UHGV virus genome: UHGV-0179801
Reading direction: 5' to 3' (one strand)
From: a virus
Length of the DNA: 43,982 bases
In this document: positions 2,143-40,281 of the stretch, piece after piece
Position numbering within the stretch: the stretch's first letter is position 1
Layout of the letters: each line of letters opens with the position of its first letter
The notes under the pieces: generated by a model
What the model saw: only the letters and a program-made list of their open reading frames with translations
What the model was told of the DNA's origin: nothing
The model's database searches: none
Program-made: the position numbers and the translations under genes

Positions 2143-3192
2143 TTAAGACCCGACACCAGTTACCAGGAAGGCAATCGGTACATGCTTACGTTCAACAACA
2201 CGGTTCCAGTTAGAGGCGTTCGCCAGGTCCTGCCAGGAAGCGGAGCGCGGGGTAGTCTCGGTGCCGTTGCCAGTGATTACTGCGCTGGTGAAGCTGTAGC
2301 CAAACGGATGCAGCAACCAGGTCTTACGGGTCCACAGGGTTTCAACGCCGCCGCCATTGCCGCGGGACTCTTCACGCTCATAGGCCAGCGGATTGGTTGG
2401 GTTGCCTTCACCATAACCGATAGCGCCGTTGCCGAAGATGATGGAGATGAACTTACGGCTAGGGCCAGTACCGACTACGGTCATGCTGTCGTCAACAATC
2501 ACGCGGTAGCCCTGGTAGGTGGCGAACAGGGTGTCGTTGTCAGCGTTTTTGATGAAGTCGATAAGCTGCTGCTTACGGGCCTGCGCGTATACGAAGCTGT
2601 GCATAGCGATAGTGCCCAGCACTTCACCACCGTTGCCCATCAGCGCGTCACCCATAGTCTGGGTAGCGTCGATGAACGCGCCTGCGTCGAAGCCCAGAGT
2701 AGAGGACACGTCGATTACCATGTCGTTCTGCTCGTGATATGCGTCGGTGGCGGCTACGTTGTCATTGTACAGACCGAGCGCGGTGGCGATCAGACGGCGT
2801 TGTGCCTGGCGCTGCCAGAAGTTATCCAGGCGGGATGCTACGGATTGCAGCGGGTTCTGGCTGGTCAGTTCTACCGTCAAATCCGCCTGACCAAAGCCTT
2901 CGTTCAGGTACGCAACGCGGGCCATCATCTCACCGGTCTGCACATTACGCGGGGTAGCGATGTCCTGGTATACGTCGTTCGAGTAGTTCGGCTCGATAGA
3001 GGTATCAATCGCTTTCCAGAAAGGAATATTAGCGATGTTGGACGGGCCGCGGGCAATCTCGGCAGCGTACGGAGTCGGAGTCAGAATACCGGACTGGAAG
3101 AACGCGGTTTTTTCTACCGGGTCCTCGGTCATATAAGATGCCAGGACCGGGATGTTGCCAGTTACGATATCGCCGATAGTGGTAATTGCCAT
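2143..3192 (-). CDS. major capsid protein
   Basis: 349-aa ORF directly after the scaffold gene; AGGAA RBS; size and position typical of an HK97-fold capsid protein. Confidence 0.7.
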   Translation of the reverse strand: MAITTIGDIVTGNIPVLASYMTEDPVEKTAFFQSGILTPTPYAAEIARGPSNIANIPFWKAIDTSIEPNYSNDVYQDIATPRNVQTGEMMARVAYLNEGFGQADLTVELTSQNPLQSVASRLDNFWQRQAQRRLIATALGLYNDNVAATDAYHEQNDMVIDVSSTLGFDAGAFIDATQTMGDALMGNGGEVLGTIAMHSFVYAQARKQQLIDFIKNADNDTLFATYQGYRVIVDDSMTVVGTGPSRKFISIIFGNGAIGYGEGNPTNPLAYEREESRGNGGGVETLWTRKTWLLHPFGYSFTSAVITGNGTETTPRSASWQDLANASNWNRVVERKHVPIAFLVTGVGS

Positions 3193-3194
3193 TA

Positions 3195-3896
3195 TTATTT
3201 CCTCAGGGCTTTAAGTTGCCGTTCAAATTCGGCAGGGTTCGATTTATACAGAGCTAAACGCTCCGCTTCACTCATGTCTTTAAACGCTGGTGCGGCCCCG
3301 CCGCCTTTGCTACCGGAAGCCCCGCCGCCGGAAGCTGCATTTGCTTTAATCAAATGCGAAAACGCTTTGTGTTCACGCAGATATTTGCGGAACTGTTCCG
3401 GGTCAGTCGTGATTACGTTACCGTCTGCGCTGACAAACTTAGTAACCACATCATCGCCTTCGAACTCAGTCTTAACGAACGGTGCAAGGATGTCCACTGC
3501 TTCCGGGGTGATAAAGTCACCTGCGAAAGAGCCTAACACCGCTTTACGTTCGCTACCGAGAATGCGCTCTGCCATTCTGGAGATGCGGCCATCTTTCTCG
3601 GCTAACACCGGGTCATACTGGCTACGAATCGTCTTTTCGAACTCGTCCATCTTACCAGCGGCTTTTAACGCCTCCTGGTGGGCACGCTGCCGTTCTTCTT
3701 CGGCCTCTTTTGCTTTACGAGCGGCTTCTTTCTTCTCCGCAAGTAATGCTTCCTGATTAGCCTTAAGCCCGGCAACTTCTTTCTCAATCAGCGCCTGAAC
3801 TTCTTCAGCGGTGAACATTTTCGGTGCGTCACCGCCGCCAGATTTATCTTCTGCTCCAGCTTCTTCCTGGAACGGATAACGTAAAAAACGATTCAT
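3195..3896 (-). CDS. scaffolding protein
   Basis: Ala/Glu/Lys-rich predicted coiled coil (EALLAEKKEAARKAKEAEEERQRAHQEALKAAGK) just upstream of the capsid gene. Start uncertain: ATG at 3896 chosen; track start 3950 is a TTG. Confidence 0.6.
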   Translation of the reverse strand: MNRFLRYPFQEEAGAEDKSGGGDAPKMFTAEEVQALIEKEVAGLKANQEALLAEKKEAARKAKEAEEERQRAHQEALKAAGKMDEFEKTIRSQYDPVLAEKDGRISRMAERILGSERKAVLGSFAGDFITPEAVDILAPFVKTEFEGDDVVTKFVSADGNVITTDPEQFRKYLREHKAFSHLIKANAASGGGASGSKGGGAAPAFKDMSEAERLALYKSNPAEFERQLKALRK

Positions 3897-3978
3897 AGTC
3901 AGTATGTCCCCTGGACGTTGGAATCCGGGCCACCCGGATTTACATGTCAAGAATAAATTATTCCAACATGCAAGGCAA

Positions 3979-4242
3979 CTATTCCAGAATATTCCTCACA
4001 TAATCCTGCAACATGAACACTTTCAGTCTCAGTTGCCGTGCACATTCGGCATTCTGAACGTCGATAGCTAAATCCTCGTCCGCGTCGCTACTTGGCGGCG
4101 CCAGTTTGCACGGCGGCTGCATCATCGTCATATCCGGGGATGGAATTAGCGTTTGCGACGGCGCGGGACTTGAGCAGGACGCGAGCATCGTCGAAAGTGC
4201 ACACGCTGCGGCCAGGCGTTTTAATGTACTTAACGACTTCAC
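3979..4242 (-). CDS. o-spanin (Rz1-like outer-membrane lipoprotein)
   Basis: Signal peptide with lipobox LASC then a Pro-rich mature region; begins in the +1 frame inside the Rz-like gene and extends past its stop (overlapped spanin architecture). Confidence 0.55.
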   Translation of the reverse strand: MKSLSTLKRLAAACALSTMLASCSSPAPSQTLIPSPDMTMMQPPCKLAPPSSDADEDLAIDVQNAECARQLRLKVFMLQDYVRNILE

Positions 4243-4474
4243 GGGTAATCACCTCTGATTTCGTCTTGCCTTCGTTGTCAGCGGCTGCGGCCTTTGATTC
4301 ATCCTGCTGCTGCCGTTGTGTTTTCTTTGCTAACTCGGTCTGTGCTTTCTGCTGTTGCTGCGAAACGAGATTCGCCCGGCCTTCGTTCCAGCCGCTGCGA
4401 TATTGGTAGATGCCGTGGGCGTAAGACAGGATGATGAAACATGCTCCTGCTACGACAGTTGCTTTAAGATTCAT
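4088..4474 (-). CDS. i-spanin (Rz-like)
   Basis: N-terminal TM helix (ATVVAGACFIILSYAHGIY) followed by a charged Gln/Lys/Glu-rich periplasmic coiled-coil region; AAAGGAGAAAC RBS; contains the embedded lipoprotein ORF. Confidence 0.55.
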   Translation of the reverse strand: MNLKATVVAGACFIILSYAHGIYQYRSGWNEGRANLVSQQQQKAQTELAKKTQRQQQDESKAAAADNEGKTKSEVITREVVKYIKTPGRSVCTFDDARVLLKSRAVANANSIPGYDDDAAAVQTGAAK

Positions 4475-4793
4475 GTTTCTCCTTTCTCGATAAGTAAAGC
4501 CCCGCCATAAAGCGGGGCGCTAGTCCTTATCATTTAAACATAGAAACGGCGTAATCTCAGTAAACCAGTTACTTTTTACACAAGCAATAGATTATGGCCC
4601 TTCCGAACGCGTCAGCGTAACTACACTCAGGACTTACGTCCCGCTCCGTTACCTGCCCGCGCCGCGGTCGCTTGTTCATACTTCACAAGCTCAGGTGGAG
4701 CTTAGCACATTTTTAGTGAAAAGTCAACTATTCGAATAGTTTATTCCAAGATTTACAATTCGGTGGAATAACTGGGATACCTAACCAAATAGT

Positions 4794-4822
4794 TTGCACA
4801 CACCAATATAATAGGGTACTAT
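4794..4822 (+). promoter_or_regulatory. sigma70-like promoter TTGCAC-N17-TACTAT with AATAG-N4-CTATT inverted repeat
   Basis: Conserved 25-nt block caccaatataatagggtactattca (4801-4825), near-identical at 6608 and 40231, followed by the conserved leader tcgaaacgaggaga and an ATG. Confidence 0.55.
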
Positions 4823-4850
4823 TCATTACATCGAAACGAGGAGATGAAAA

Positions 4851-5024
4851 ATGTTCAAAGAAAAAGACATAATGCACGAAAACGGCAAATACTGGGTTCT
4901 AAATGATAAAGGAGTGTACTGCGTAATGATTTCCGGGTTTACCCACGCTAAAGCTGATAGTGCATACGCTAGTTTAGATTTAGCGATAGCCCGCTGTGAT
5001 TATCTGGCGAGTAGAGACGCATAA
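4851..5024 (+). CDS. small moron protein (57 aa), hypothetical
   Basis: ATG 4851 after the conserved promoter/leader (gaggagatgaaaaATG); opposite strand to the flanking late genes; followed by a terminator hairpin. Confidence 0.5.
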   Translation: MFKEKDIMHENGKYWVLNDKGVYCVMISGFTHAKADSAYASLDLAIARCDYLASRDA

Positions 5025-5027
5025 ACT

Positions 5028-5050
5028 AAGGCCCCGTAATGGGGCCTTTT
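5028..5050 (+). terminator. rho-independent terminator (AAGGCCCC-gtaat-GGGGCCTT-TT)
   Basis: Perfect 8-bp GC-rich stem, 5-nt loop, T-run; member of a conserved hairpin family recurring at 7183, 30767 and 42010. Confidence 0.6.
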
Positions 5051-5051
5051 A

Positions 5052-5510
5052 TCAATCTGGCTTAGTGACCTTCGCCGCCTTGCTTACCACCTCAACTCCA
5101 TCGGTATCAGTAACTTTAACGAAGTATTCGCCAGCTGCGTTAACCGACAGAGACAAAGCCTGTTCTGGTGCGTTAACCACTTCCTTACCGTCCTTGTACC
5201 AGGTCAGAGTATACGGCGCTTTACCCGCTTTAACTTCGACAGTGATAGTTGCGCTGCCGTCTGCCAGTTCGGCGTCCTGCGGTTGCACAGAGAAATACAC
5301 ATCGCCAGCATCAGCCAGATACGGAATCTCATAAAGCATACCCGCCGCCGGCAGCGCAATACCGGTTTTATCTGCAAACGGCATATCGTCTACGGGCGTA
5401 CCGAGTACACTTTCATCTTCAATAAATACCACGTTCTCGCCGGAGCCAGACACGCGGGCGTACTGGACTACGCGACGCGCGGGTACATCAGTTACTTTGA
5501 AAAAGCCCAT
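5052..5510 (-). CDS. Ig-like domain structural protein
   Basis: Track ORF; GGGGA RBS; C-terminal Ig-like signature (APYTLTWYKDGKEV ... GEYFVKVTD); downstream of the head morphogenesis gene. Confidence 0.5.
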   Translation of the reverse strand: MGFFKVTDVPARRVVQYARVSGSGENVVFIEDESVLGTPVDDMPFADKTGIALPAAGMLYEIPYLADAGDVYFSVQPQDAELADGSATITVEVKAGKAPYTLTWYKDGKEVVNAPEQALSLSVNAAGEYFVKVTDTDGVEVVSKAAKVTKPD

Positions 5511-5512
5511 CG

Positions 5513-6556
5513 TTATTCCCCTTTCAGATAATCAGCAACACGTTTATCGAGTTCCGCCATCTGCTTAAGCGTCAGCGGATTCCCGAAACCATCTACAGAT
5601 ATTACGCGAAACTCTTCCGGTGATATACCGCTGTTACGGAAAATCTTACCGCGTGTCGGCCCGAGTGCTTCATCCTGAAACCATGCCGGTTGTTGTTTCA
5701 GGAACTCGTAATAGGTTGTGTCCGCGCTTACCTGAGTTCCTCCGTCTGCACCCTTAGCCGCACGTTTTGCGCCTTTATCGAGGAAGTCGAACTCCGAGCT
5801 AATTACCGGAGCCGTGCACGACCGGCAGTTCGGATGGGCGGGGGGCATCGGCCCTTTACCAATTTCCCACGTCATCCCGTCTCTGGCTCTGCAAATCGTA
5901 CTTGTACGGCTGTCGAGGGTGGATACCCACTCGTACTTCTCGATGATGTCGTCGTTCTGACGGTACGTCTCGTTACGTGCTTCGTTGGACACGTGGGACA
6001 GCGCGGTGCGTATTACAGTAGCCGCATTGCGCTCAGAGACATCGGCCAGGCCACCCGCGCCAACAACATTCTTAACAATCTGCCGTGTGGTTTGGCCTTG
6101 TACAAATCCCATCTTAACGCCCGTTACCAGGCGCGCGACCTCCGCTTCGCCCCAGCCATCCATCAGCTTGGTGAAATCGACAGGCTTGTCACTTAGTGAC
6201 AGAGGTTGAAACTCGGCAGCGGCCCACACCTGCTCAGCGGTAGGAGTAATAAATTCTGCGTTAACATTGGTCGTCAGTGTTTTTACGTTCCACTCAGCCT
6301 CATATGCCGCCAGTTCCTTAAGGTCTTCTGTCAGCTTTGTTTGCCAGTCACCTGTAAGGCCTGCCAGTGCTTCTTCGAGGTCGCGTAACAGTTTATTCAG
6401 TCTGGCGGTGCTGCGACCGTCGTCGCCGAATAACAGCACCTGCCGTTTTATTTCGTCACGCATCTCCTGAATGAACGGTGTGAGGTCTTTCACCTCGCCG
6501 GATGCGGTGCGTTGCAGCCATATCTGGTGGCTGATTAAGGATGTAAGTAAGCTCAT
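5513..6556 (-). CDS. head morphogenesis / minor capsid protein (Mu F-like, SPP1 gp7-like)
   Basis: Motif STLDSRTSTICRARDG typical of the Mu-F/gp7 family; located after the portal gene; ATG 6556 with GGAGGG RBS preferred over the track start 6613. Confidence 0.65.
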   Translation of the reverse strand: MSLLTSLISHQIWLQRTASGEVKDLTPFIQEMRDEIKRQVLLFGDDGRSTARLNKLLRDLEEALAGLTGDWQTKLTEDLKELAAYEAEWNVKTLTTNVNAEFITPTAEQVWAAAEFQPLSLSDKPVDFTKLMDGWGEAEVARLVTGVKMGFVQGQTTRQIVKNVVGAGGLADVSERNAATVIRTALSHVSNEARNETYRQNDDIIEKYEWVSTLDSRTSTICRARDGMTWEIGKGPMPPAHPNCRSCTAPVISSEFDFLDKGAKRAAKGADGGTQVSADTTYYEFLKQQPAWFQDEALGPTRGKIFRNSGISPEEFRVISVDGFGNPLTLKQMAELDKRVADYLKGE

Positions 6557-6600
6557 ATGCCCTCCTGTAGTATCGACAGTGTAACGCATAAAAATAATAT

Positions 6601-6629
6601 TTGCAGACACCAATATAATAGGGTACTAT
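6601..6629 (+). promoter_or_regulatory. sigma70-like promoter TTGCAG-N17-TACTAT (conserved family)
   Basis: Same 25-nt block as at 4801 and 40231, followed by the conserved leader tcgaaacgaggagatgagaaATG. Confidence 0.55.
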
Positions 6630-6656
6630 TCAGTTATCGAAACGAGGAGATGAGAA

Positions 6657-7178
6657 ATGGTTACTACAGTAATTACTTTCCCTGCGTATGTAGGGGCGAA
6701 AATCTGCAGGGCGAAAAATGATGTGCGCTATTATTTGAACGCTTTTTACATAGACCCTGAAGGATTGATAGTTTCTACGGATGGTCACAGATTGTTCTGC
6801 GACAACGTGAAGACAAACGTCGAAACTGGAGTTCTAATAGACATCAAAGGGAGGGAGCCTTCTAAATTTAACTACGCGGAGGTAGACCACGACAACGGTA
6901 GTGTTTCTTTCTATGACGATAGTAGTGCGCTTGTATGTACACTTCCTATTGAAGTTGTAGACGGGAGATTTCCTTACTGGAGACGTGTGGCCGGCATTAC
7001 GCCGGGTTCAGTCGATAGCATAGGGTTCTCTCTGCGCTATTTGGCGGACGCGTACAAGATTTCTAAGGCATACAAAAATGAAATTGCCCGTTTCGATTTC
7101 CAGGACCAAACAAACGGATGCAAAATATCATTTTCAAACACTGCATTTATGGTGCTAATGCCAGCGCGATTTAAATAA
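6657..7178 (+). CDS. truncated DnaN-like (beta sliding clamp) protein, 173 aa
   Basis: Matches to recalled E. coli DnaN: NDVRYYLN (DnaN DVRYYLNG), STDGHRL (ATDGHRLA), VVDGRFPYWRRV (LVDGRFPDYRRV), SIGFSLRYLAD (EIGFNVSYVLD), C-terminal AFMVLMPARFK (AYVVMPMRL). Roughly half DnaN length; own promoter and terminator. Confidence 0.7.
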   Translation: MVTTVITFPAYVGAKICRAKNDVRYYLNAFYIDPEGLIVSTDGHRLFCDNVKTNVETGVLIDIKGREPSKFNYAEVDHDNGSVSFYDDSSALVCTLPIEVVDGRFPYWRRVAGITPGSVDSIGFSLRYLADAYKISKAYKNEIARFDFQDQTNGCKISFSNTAFMVLMPARFK

Positions 7179-7182
7179 AACT

Positions 7183-7208
7183 AAGGCCCCGAAAGGGGCC
7201 TTTTCTTT
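7183..7208 (+). terminator. rho-independent terminator (AAGGCCCC-gaaa-GGGGCCTT-TTCTTT)
   Basis: 8-bp stem, GAAA loop, T-run, directly after the stop at 7176-7178; same hairpin family as 5028. Confidence 0.6.
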
Positions 7209-12881: not shown

Positions 12882-13224
12882 TTCTTCTCTCCTGCGAGTT
12901 CCATATTGAATACAATACGAACGTTTTCCAGGGGCGTAGTACCTACTAGCTTTGCCGCGTAAGCCCCCGCATCTCCAGATTGGTGAAACTGGCCGCAATC
13001 AACATACTCATCCCCGTTGAAAAAAAGAAACAACGAAACAACCTTTACCAACTTCCGTAACTATATTTTTCATTTCTTCTCTCCTACATAAGCTGCTTTC
13101 AGTGTCTGCATCGCGGCGAACCAGAACGCGTCCGCGGGGATGCTGTTGCTCAGGTTACTGACGGCGATGCGTGCCATTAGTTGTGCGTCTTTGAATGCTT
13201 CGATGTCTGTGATTTTCATATTCA

Positions 13225-13437
13225 TTATCCTGCGTTGAATGAACCTAGTACGATGCCACTTTCTTTTGGTTTCTTGATTTCGGTAACTTTTACGTTATCG
13301 TTGAAGTTATTCATGGTTGTCGGGTCATCCTTAGCGCGTACCAGGCTCAATGCTTCATCCGGGTACTTAGCCCACACCACAAAAGAATCGTATTGGTCAT
13401 AGTCGCACCAGTCAGCTTCTACTAAATATAATTTCAT
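13225..13437 (-). CDS. hypothetical acidic protein (70 aa)
   Basis: Track ORF 13225..13500; internal ATG at 13437 with GGAG RBS preferred. Confidence 0.4.
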   Translation of the reverse strand: MKLYLVEADWCDYDQYDSFVVWAKYPDEALSLVRAKDDPTTMNNFNDNVKVTEIKKPKESGIVLGSFNAG

Positions 13438-13521
13438 CTTCTCTACTCCGTTCTCGTTGTCGATGAAAGTAAATATAGTAGGGTCGAGGATAATAGTCAA
13501 CTAGTCATTACAGAAAATAGA

Positions 13522-13618: not shown

Positions 13619-14125
13619 TCAACCTTTCACCGCGCGCCCAATAGCCTCAGCCTCTTGCCACGATTTACCGTCGAACAGCGCCAGACGTCCGGCAACACGT
13701 CGGCGTAGGCCAAGCACAGGCTCAAGTTTACCGGTTTTCGGGTTACGCTGGTTGATGAACTGACTCATCTTGTGCCGTAAGGTAGGGATGTCTCCCTGCC
13801 GTAGTGCCTTACCGGTACCGGTCGTCGCCGCGATAACACCAGTTCCGGCGTTAAACACCAGGTCGACAACGGCATCAAACTGAGCCTGGGTCAGTGAGGG
13901 ATGTGCGACTTCATCAACTGCTTTCACCGCCCACTGCATATCGCGGTTCAGTAACAGCAGCCCCTGGCCCTCGGTAATCTTCTGCCCTTCATACACATCC
14001 GGCCCGGTATGACCCCAGCCTATAGTCCAGTATTTCTCGTTCTTTGTGGCTTTGTATGCAGTTCCGCGAAACTTCTCCCACGCTTTCTTGAACTGCAACC
14101 CATTATCTGAAATGTTTCGAGACAC
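13619..14125 (-). CDS. endolysin, phage lysozyme (GH24-like)
   Basis: Lysozyme signature AWEKFRGTAYKATKNEKYWTIGWGHTG; GTG 14125 with GGAGG RBS chosen; alternative ATG at 14176 (track) lacks an RBS. Confidence 0.65.
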   Translation of the reverse strand: MSRNISDNGLQFKKAWEKFRGTAYKATKNEKYWTIGWGHTGPDVYEGQKITEGQGLLLLNRDMQWAVKAVDEVAHPSLTQAQFDAVVDLVFNAGTGVIAATTGTGKALRQGDIPTLRHKMSQFINQRNPKTGKLEPVLGLRRRVAGRLALFDGKSWQEAEAIGRAVKG

Positions 14126-14375
14126 GCTTATGTCCTCCGTATGACAGCCACGCCTGGCGAATTTGACGCAGCGCAACTAATGTGATTAACGTCTCGGGCA
14201 ACGTCGGCGACATGCTGCCCTGTAACAGGTGGATGCATCCGGCGGCGCAGACGATAGCGGTCAGGATATAGAGCACCCGGCCAAATATCCCGTCGTCCAC
14301 ACTCGGATGATACACATTAAACAGCGATGTGCCTCCGATTGCCAGCATACCGCCGAACCAGAATAACTCATTCAT
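14103..14375 (-). CDS. holin/antiholin-like membrane protein (90 aa)
   Basis: Internal ATG 14375 of track ORF 14103..14555, GGAGG RBS, overlaps the stop of the upstream membrane protein (ATGA); two hydrophobic helices. Confidence 0.5.
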   Translation of the reverse strand: MNELFWFGGMLAIGGTSLFNVYHPSVDDGIFGRVLYILTAIVCAAGCIHLLQGSMSPTLPETLITLVALRQIRQAWLSYGGHKRVSKHFR

Positions 14376-14676
14376 CCGGGCCTCCTCGACGTGCAATGTA
14401 TTCTCCGGCGACGATGCCAGAAAGGCGGGAATAAATAGGCATCCAGAGAACGGCAATGATAAAGCCCAGGCCCGCGATTTCACGGTCGCCCGTGATGCCG
14501 AACCATTGAGCCGCGAGAGGTGCGCCAAATACGGCGCAGGTGAAGCCGGTTGCAATAAAGCAGAATCCGTCGATAGGGCCAGAAATAACGGACTTATGTT
14601 GCCTTAGTCCGATGACCCCACCGGCGAGTGCGGCAGCGAGAAGCCAGCCTGTCACTGTTTCAGTAAATTTATCCAA
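14368..14676 (-). CDS. holin-like membrane protein (102 aa)
   Basis: Multi-TM small protein immediately upstream of the second membrane protein and endolysin; TTG start with GGAGG RBS. Confidence 0.5.
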   Translation of the reverse strand: MDKFTETVTGWLLAAALAGGVIGLRQHKSVISGPIDGFCFIATGFTCAVFGAPLAAQWFGITGDREIAGLGFIIAVLWMPIYSRLSGIVAGEYIARRGGPDE

Positions 14677-40222: not shown

Positions 40223-40251
40223 TTGCACACCCCAATATAATAGGGTACTAT
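40223..40251 (+). promoter_or_regulatory. sigma70-like promoter TTGCAC-N17-TACTAT (conserved family)
   Basis: acttgcacaccccaatataatagggtactattca, the same block as at 4794 and 6601. Confidence 0.55.
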
Positions 40252-40281
40252 TCACTTACACCAACAATGGAGGAGTTTAAA

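Follow-up and report, generated by a model that had tools for sequence, protein, structure and literature searches.

Closest described systems

The Jersey family was described by Kongari et al. (2018, BMC Bioinformatics 19:326; PMC6139136) as a group of overlapped two-component spanins, with members in phages Jersey, SETP3, SE2, K1G, K1H, K1ind1-3, HK578 and SO-1, and the separated variants of FSL SP-031/038/049 were placed in the same family. Its hallmarks are a 155-bp overlap between the two genes, two polyQ stretches in the inner-membrane component (i-spanin), a helical outer-membrane component (o-spanin), and the constant residues Cys45 and Cys67. In this work, we analyze a spanin-like gene pair found on the minus strand, at positions 3979-4474, of the virus genome UHGV-0179801, whose whole length of 43,982 nucleotides (nt) is referred to as the window. 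All the published hallmarks are present in this pair, the helical C-terminus of the o-spanin being predicted by AlphaFold2, and the locus very probably encodes an overlapped two-component spanin that is functional and, by sequence, a direct member of the Jersey family.

Full-length blastp comparisons revealed identities of 92.2% and 87.4% between the i-spanin and o-spanin of the window and ORF5 and ORF6 of K1G, and of 64.1% and 64.8% with the i-spanin (gp09) and o-spanin of phage Jersey. In the K1G record of 2010, two genes with lengths of 387 and 264 nt and a 155-nt overlap are labeled "putative spanin", and the Jersey RefSeq record does likewise. The gene lengths, the overlap and the slot between a Hoc-like and a scaffold gene are shared with the window, and the difference from K1G is allelic only (LASC/Cys23 in the window, LSAC/Cys22 in K1G). 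In comparisons with the PHROGs database, the i-spanin matched phrog_2536, "Rz-like spanin" (E 5e-55), and the o-spanin matched phrog_1267 over residues 8-86 (E 9e-19). An earlier annotation of this DNA, made from the letters alone (the sequence-only reading), had proposed an overlapped spanin pair at this place; its coordinates for both ORFs proved exact, and the identity is upheld by these matches and the K1G comparison. The pair, its overlap and its unlinked position have already been published for this phage group and are ordinary rather than new; the finding is a curated spanin family re-identified in a new isolate, with a gene arrangement that is already in print.

A megablast search with positions 3000-6000 returned 483 phage records, the best with about 94% identity over 94% of the query. 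The top relatives are the Escherichia phages hz69, 590B, NTEC3, EC3-1 and Bas70-76 of the BASEL collection, in addition to "Kagunavirus" genomes. Since the best matches are Kagunavirus phages, the window is classified by similarity as a Kagunavirus-like member of the Guernseyvirinae, an E. coli siphophage. The comparative set used below consists of 72 IMG/VR loci found with an i-spanin profile, 63 of which were analyzable for the o-spanin.

The overlapped class is generally understood as one in which the o-spanin begins inside the i-spanin gene, in its +1 frame, and ends past its stop, and this organization is shared by the window and by LysB/LysC of phage P2. On the other hand, no sequence similarity to the P2 proteins was detected, and the P2 pair lies inside the lysis cassette, beside the holin and the endolysin. 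With Rz/Rz1 of phage lambda the locus shares the functional class and the presumed mechanism, a type II inner-membrane protein acting with an outer-membrane lipoprotein, both bearing periplasmic cysteines. However, lambda Rz1 is wholly embedded in Rz, whereas the o-spanin of the window overlaps the i-spanin without being embedded in it; mature Rz1 has 40 amino acids (aa) and is unstructured, while the mature o-spanin has 65 aa and a predicted C-terminal helix; and the lambda pair ends the S-R-Rz cassette, while the pair of the window stands away from holin and endolysin. This last feature is shared with PseT.3/PseT.2 of phage T4 and with the spanins of phage Schulenberg, although the T4 pair differs from that of the window in being of the separated class and of another sequence family.

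The i-spanin and o-spanin genes

The i-spanin gene (4474..4088, minus strand, 387 nt) encodes 128 aa from an ATG start, which is preceded by the ribosome-binding site AAGGAG at 4484..4479 (minus strand). The most hydrophobic 17-residue stretch comprises residues 3-19, with a Kyte-Doolittle mean of 1.79, so the transmembrane anchor attributed to this gene by the sequence-only reading was recovered. By hydropathy, the predicted N-terminal transmembrane segment covers approximately residues 5-23 (4406..4462, minus strand), in a helix modeled with a predicted local distance difference test (pLDDT) score of 78-89. Lys4 precedes this segment, which implies an N-in/C-out topology. Hydropathy, Lys4 and the AlphaFold2 helix that starts at residue 3 are all consistent with a single N-terminal transmembrane domain followed by a periplasmic remainder. 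The single-sequence AlphaFold2 model has helices at residues 3-84 and 94-107, with pLDDT of 78-89 only to about residue 60; the long helix is polar and rich in Gln, Lys and Ala, and the polyQ stretches are QQQQ at residues 39-42 and QQQ at 54-56. The protein has a single periplasmic cysteine, C92, and a variable C-terminus. From sequence and comparison, the i-spanin is predicted to be an inner-membrane protein of type II, with a helical domain in the periplasm that would extend toward the outer membrane.

The o-spanin gene (4242..3979, minus strand, 264 nt) has a GTG start and encodes the predicted precursor of an outer-membrane lipoprotein of 87 aa. A ribosome-binding site, GAGGTGA (4249..4255, minus strand), is located 6 nt before the GTG, within the i-spanin coding sequence. 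At the same site, GAGGTGA, GAGGTAA or GGAGGC is kept in at least 50 relatives, and the start position is also conserved, as GTG in kagunaviruses and as ATG in several jerseyviruses. These signals indicate that translation of the o-spanin begins at this GTG codon, within the i-spanin gene and with a ribosome-binding site of its own.

The N-terminus of the o-spanin reads MKSLSTLKRLAAACALSTMLASC, followed by SSPAPS. The lipobox is formed by L20-A21-S22-C23 and is followed by Ser24 (lipobox at 4174..4185, minus strand). The protein passes a lipoprotein rule of the PROSITE PS51257 type (a Lys among residues 1-7, no charge on any of the 6 residues that precede the box, and the Cys between positions 15 and 35), with Cys23 as the lipobox cysteine and Ser at position +2; as there is no Asp at +2, sorting to the outer membrane is predicted. 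The mature part of 65 aa contains 8 Pro, all in its N-terminal half, in addition to Cys45 and Cys67, and thus both the LASC lipobox and the Pro-rich mature part noticed by the sequence-only reading were found. The single-sequence AlphaFold2 model consists of a helix at residues 4-23, a disordered region at 24-53 and a C-terminal helix at 54-86, with pLDDT of about 80-89. Periplasmic cysteines available for intermolecular disulfides are present in both proteins, C92 in the i-spanin and C45 and C67 in the o-spanin.

When all six frames of the window are scanned, the lipoprotein rule matches eight start-specific open reading frames (ORFs), the majority being antisense junk. Because seven other ORFs also satisfy it, the rule was discarded as sole evidence; the ORF length is not significant by itself either. 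The decisive evidence that the pair is more than chance is comparative, namely the conservation of the lipobox ORF and of its start, the tblastn coverage and the diversity pattern. Every relative has a lipobox, with LASC, LSAC, LNGC, LSGC, ITGC, MSGC, LCGC and LCSC among the forms. In kagunaviruses the lipobox appears in two registers, LASC followed by Ser with Cys23 (the window and 14 loci) and LSAC followed by Ser with Cys22 (14 loci), so that the cysteine predicted to be lipidated is shifted by one residue while the protein length is unchanged.

Genomic position and lysis genes

The genes surrounding the spanin pair are all on the minus strand. On its upstream side the pair is preceded by the head-morphogenesis gene (5513-6613, phrog_241) and by a Hoc-like gene with an Ig domain (5052-5510), and on its downstream side it is followed by the genes for the scaffold (3195-3896) and the major capsid protein (2143-3192). 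These flanks agree with the location given by the sequence-only reading, between the head-morphogenesis/Ig-like genes and the scaffold gene.

The lysis cassette is distant and also on the minus strand. Its first gene, holin 1 (14676..14368), encodes 102 aa from a TTG start and matches phrog_2359 (E 6e-29); its K1G homologue is annotated as a class II holin. It is followed by holin 2, or a holin/antiholin partner (14375..14103, 90 aa, ATG at 14375, phrog_2508 with E 7e-33), and by the endolysin, a phage lysozyme (14125..13619, 168 aa, GTG at 14125), which matches PF00959 with 86.5 bits and phrog_7. The two genes preceding the endolysin thus belong to distinct holin families, overlap by 8 nt at their ends, and carry in relatives the labels class II holin and class I holin, or else those of a holin and its antiholin. 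The distance from the endolysin stop to the i-spanin start is 9,145 nt, against the roughly 9 kb that the sequence-only reading gave for a cassette at 13619-14676, and the terminase, portal and head genes lie in between. The spanins of the window therefore do not stand directly downstream of holin and endolysin in a contiguous cassette, and no second spanin was found after the endolysin, where the ORFs at 13225-13500 and 13070-13225 have neither a transmembrane segment nor a lipobox. The proposed division of the lysis functions between two places is supported.

The same head-module slot is used in Jerseyvirus (SE2, YMFM0293, S3P and Jersey), in Cornellvirus SP-031, in Pantoea phage AH01 and in Dhillonvirus HK578, as well as in 68 of the 72 IMG/VR loci. 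Spanins located apart from holin and endolysin have been reported for the Guernseyvirinae-like phage Schulenberg (PMC6763661) and for T4, a textbook case (Kongari et al., PMC6139136, Fig. 8 legend). Distant homologues, with 35-57% identity in the i-spanin and 36-43% in the o-spanin, adjoin the holin and endolysin genes, on their downstream side, in cassettes of the lambdoid type carried by Klebsiella phage 2b LV-2017 and by the IMG/VR contigs L080, L081, L083 and L084. The presence of homologues in holin-endolysin-spanin cassettes ties the family to lysis.

This point bears on a different explanation of the locus, by which the pair would not be lytic at all, serving instead as an envelope accessory (a superinfection-exclusion or cor-like lipoprotein system) or as a membrane anchor for assembly. 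The position between head-decoration and scaffold genes, in a spot that also takes unrelated cargo genes, would suit such a role, and the literature gave no experiment on the Jersey family. However, homologues fill the spanin slot of canonical lysis cassettes, the phage offers no alternative spanin behind its endolysin, the combination of a transmembrane protein and a lipoprotein in its +1 frame is the defining spanin architecture (PMC6139136), and unlinked spanins are normal, as T4 and Schulenberg demonstrate (PMC6139136, PMC6763661). We consider a non-lytic function very improbable.

For a spanin pair, the mode of action can be carried over from the lambda and T4 work summarized in PMC6139136, the lambda Rz/Rz1 model being established knowledge. 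The o-spanin would be exported, lipid-modified at Cys23, cleaved by signal peptidase II and sorted by the Lol system to the inner leaflet of the outer membrane. The C-terminal regions of the two proteins would bind each other, and complexes linked by disulfides (C92 of the i-spanin; C45 and C67 of the o-spanin) would cross the periplasm, kept inactive by the peptidoglycan mesh. After holin triggering, degradation of the wall by the endolysin would free these complexes, which would then fuse or disrupt the outer membrane as the final step of lysis. As spanins would accumulate harmlessly and be activated only on the loss of peptidoglycan, they would need late expression rather than linkage to holin and endolysin; on the lambda/T4 model, an unlinked position would be tolerated because only late synthesis is needed.

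Overlap, conservation and annotation of the o-spanin

The dual-coding overlap comprises 155 nt (4088..4242, minus strand), in which the o-spanin is read in frame +1 relative to the i-spanin (4474-4242 = 232 = 3x77+1). The sequence-only reading had described a lipoprotein ORF in this frame running beyond the i-spanin stop, and the o-spanin indeed continues 109 nt past it, so that the adjacency and layout of the two genes are those of the overlapped class. The 155-nt overlap was found in 37 of 63 related IMG/VR loci, and a lipobox ORF in the corresponding arrangement in all 63 analyzable relatives. In addition, a tblastn search with the 87-aa o-spanin matched 665 phage records, 638 of which cover at least 80% of its length.

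Diversity by codon position was calculated for 42 distinct sequences with identical overlap geometry. Past the i-spanin stop, third positions of o-frame codons are the most diverse (0.251, compared with 0.088 and 0.037), and in the part coding only for the i-spanin the maximum falls on i-frame third positions. This pattern argues for purifying selection operating on the o-frame. Within the 155-nt overlap, diversity tracks the i-frame and not the o-frame, and therefore the signal peptide and linker of the o-spanin are the less constrained reading there.

Cornellvirus-like and AH01-like relatives (L004 3766-4354, L005 3658-4252 and IMG/VR loci L063-L082) carry members of the same family in a "separated" layout, with an overlap of 4-41 nt, which is of 8 nt in five loci, as in SP-031 and AH01. 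Their i-spanin has a shorter C-terminus, and their o-spanin has an unrelated signal peptide and an ITGC or LVGC lipobox. Separated variants of the Jersey-type spanins were already discussed by Kongari et al. (2018; PMC6139136).

Many records present a shorter o-spanin. Bas70-76, EC3-1, the SE2 RefSeq record and YMFM0293 call only an ORF of 144-147 nt from an internal ATG, the truncated calls compared with the o-spanin of the window being those at L001 12980-13123, L002 3978-4124, L008 3091-3234 and L007 12121-12264; such calls lack the signal peptide and the lipobox, or are mislabeled. The 47-residue family phrog_5672, which matches only residues 41-87 of the o-spanin, was built from these truncated calls. 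If they were right, only the 47-aa ORF (ATG at about 4122) would be real, there would be no lipoprotein, and the upstream +1 frame would be open by chance, which would agree with the "Rz-like spanin" label given to the 144-147-nt ORFs of Bas74, EC3-1, SE2 and YMFM0293, with the existence of a 47-residue family, and with an overlap whose diversity follows the i-frame rather than the o-frame. This is likewise very improbable, since each of the 63 relatives keeps this frame open, including a signal peptide and lipobox, also where the signal peptides are unrelated (SP-031, AH01, HK578 and the Klebsiella phage), a ribosome-binding site is kept 6-7 nt before a conserved start that is ATG in some phages, the phrog_1267 alignment spans residues 8-86, the K1G and Jersey records and Kongari et al. 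(PMC6139136) give the 87-aa form, and a soluble fragment without export signals would be unable to reach the periplasm. As judged from these comparisons, the 87-aa lipoprotein started at GTG is the correct o-spanin model, and the sequence-only reading, which had proposed it, is in this respect better than most GenBank annotations, limited to the 47-aa fragment. The correction has a value for annotation, as many GenBank and Pharokka records of Kagunavirus and Jerseyvirus hold the truncated form.

Some observations weigh against the assignment of the pair to functional spanins. Both AlphaFold2 models were made from single sequences and have low confidence, with a mean pLDDT of 63-65, and we infer both the coiled-coil character that the sequence-only reading gave to the i-spanin and the interaction of this protein with the o-spanin. 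Neither protein matched any Pfam family, including the Rz and Rz1 models, at E <= 0.1; an NCBIfam scan of both gave no meaningful model match; sequence searches of the PDB with both found no related solved structure; and the literature search found no experiment on Jersey-family spanins, the experiments being on those of lambda, T4 and T1 only (PMC6139136). The name "Rz/Rz1-type", used in the sequence-only reading, is for this reason true only as a functional class: there is no Pfam Rz/Rz1 match that would make it a sequence family, and the architecture is overlapped, like that of P2 LysB/LysC, and not embedded.

A conserved, structured candidate leader upstream of the pair

Among kagunaviruses, conservation over the 380 nt that precede the i-spanin (4475-4855) is 94-97%, a value equal to or above that of the flanking genes, and these 380 nt contain no conserved ORF. 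The i-spanin is immediately preceded by a putative leader of about 200 nt, within 4490-4741 (minus strand). This structured leader is the sole feature of the locus that could raise a new question, concerning the control of the late genes of Guernseyvirinae, the spanins among them.

A sigma-70-like promoter candidate (4699..4727, minus strand) is composed of TTGACT (4727-4722), a 17-nt spacer ending in TGc, and TAAGCT (4704-4699). K1G and the jerseyviruses keep it in the form T(T/A)GACT...TACGCT, and it was missed by a consensus scan because its -10 element matches only three of six positions. The perfect 16-nt palindrome AACTATTCGAATAGTT (4726-4741) overlaps its -35 element and is situated between this candidate and the divergent promoter of the gene at 4851-5024, a position in which it may be an operator. 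Just past the candidate -10 there is a -10-like repeat (TAAGCT..TGAGCT; TACGCT..TACGCT in Jersey); its interpretation as a sigma-dependent pause signal is kept as speculation, the repeat being absent from Cornell-like leaders.

The promoter candidate is followed by a structured RNA domain (4586..4698, minus strand), formed by a hairpin at its 5' end, a second, long hairpin in three parts, and the motif TTCGGAAGGGCC. The covariance model of this 113-nt 5' domain, R1, has one match in the window (4586-4698, minus strand, 141.8 bits), matches all Jersey-type loci at E of about 1e-9, and gives one match per Kagunavirus or Jerseyvirus genome. It found no match in HK578, in lambdoid homologues or in the rest of a kagunavirus genome; at E <= 1 it found none in Cornell-like or AH01-like leaders, for which a hand alignment suggests a related element. 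In the R1 alignment, which is fitted to the model, 95.8% of the cells are paired, against 27-46% with slid partners, 13 of 32 pairs change on both sides, and the covariation score of 0.275 is well above the slid controls (0.043 or less) and is reached by none of 500 shuffles. Many compensatory changes separate the Kagunavirus and Jerseyvirus versions of the leader. A scan of positions 3800-5200 against Rfam at E <= 1 returned no match.

Closer to the gene, 14 nt before the i-spanin ribosome-binding site, is a GC-rich hairpin, GCCCCGCT-TTAT-GGCGGGGC, followed by TTTACTTATC (4518..4499, minus strand). It scores as an intrinsic terminator in kagunaviruses, and its U-tract is poor in jerseyviruses; its stem presents the compensatory variants GCCCTGC/GCAGGGC, GCCCGGC/GCCGGGC and GCCCGAC/GTCGGGC.

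The motif ACGCRTTCGGAAGGGCC was found in 44 IMG/VR stretches, and in 40 of them an i-spanin starts 127-139 nt downstream. Of the four that remain, one is cut off short of the gene, two (L095 and L109) are chance matches inside unrelated coding regions and were rejected, and one is a diverged second copy in an early region. This last, L129 8502-8616 (IMG/VR 3300033074_000010), includes both promoter and 5' domain, lies about 3 kb upstream of the holin, and has different inner-helix sequences with the same fold (R1, 87.5 bits). The window has a single copy of the element.

A 36-aa ORF at 4679..4569, which some records annotate (as hypothetical in Bas74), is not conserved and was rejected as probably no gene, the region behaving as structured RNA. 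Its ATG falls inside an 11-nt indel that is absent from jerseyviruses, locus L038 lacks the ATG, and several kagunaviruses have internal 1-nt indels.

A reasonable guess is that the leader RNA acts as a leader, attenuator or antitermination element for an operon beginning with the spanins, or as a phage small RNA. A more specific proposal, which we put forward only tentatively and regard as rather unlikely, is that through this leader the spanins may open a late transcription unit with a control of its own, which would continue with the scaffold, the major capsid and onward. Such a unit would combine the sigma-70-like promoter and palindromic operator, the covarying RNA of about 110 nt, and the hairpin abutting the i-spanin ribosome-binding site, an arrangement with a likeness to lambda pR'-6S-tR' ahead of the lysis genes. 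No Q-like antiterminator is annotated in the whole genome of Bas74 or in the Jersey and K1G records, whose small hypothetical proteins were left unanalyzed, and no dedicated late regulator is annotated in any of the three.

Opposite-strand cassettes in the head cluster

A promoter-like element, CTTGCACACACCAATATAATAGGGTACTATTCA (TTGCAC-N17-TACTAT), is repeated at 4793-4825, 6600-6632 and 40223-40254 on the plus strand and at 18086-18055 on the minus strand, with weaker copies at 16896-16875 and 21834-21818, both on the minus strand. Two of the copies precede genes of the head cluster that run in the direction opposite to the late genes, a 57-aa gene (4851-5024, plus strand, phrog_20712) and a 173-aa RusA-like resolvase gene (6657-7178, plus strand, phrog_3007). 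A terminator hairpin, AAAACTAAGGCCCCG-nnn-GGGGCCTTTT, is also repeated, at 5023-5050 and 7178-7204 (plus strand) and at 30791-30765 and 42034-42008 (minus strand). As two of these terminators close the opposite-strand genes of the head cluster, each gene forms a self-contained cassette of promoter, gene and terminator. Relatives carry other cargo in the slot that separates the Hoc-like gene from the spanins: SP-031 has a PAPS reductase there, and AH01 has three small genes.

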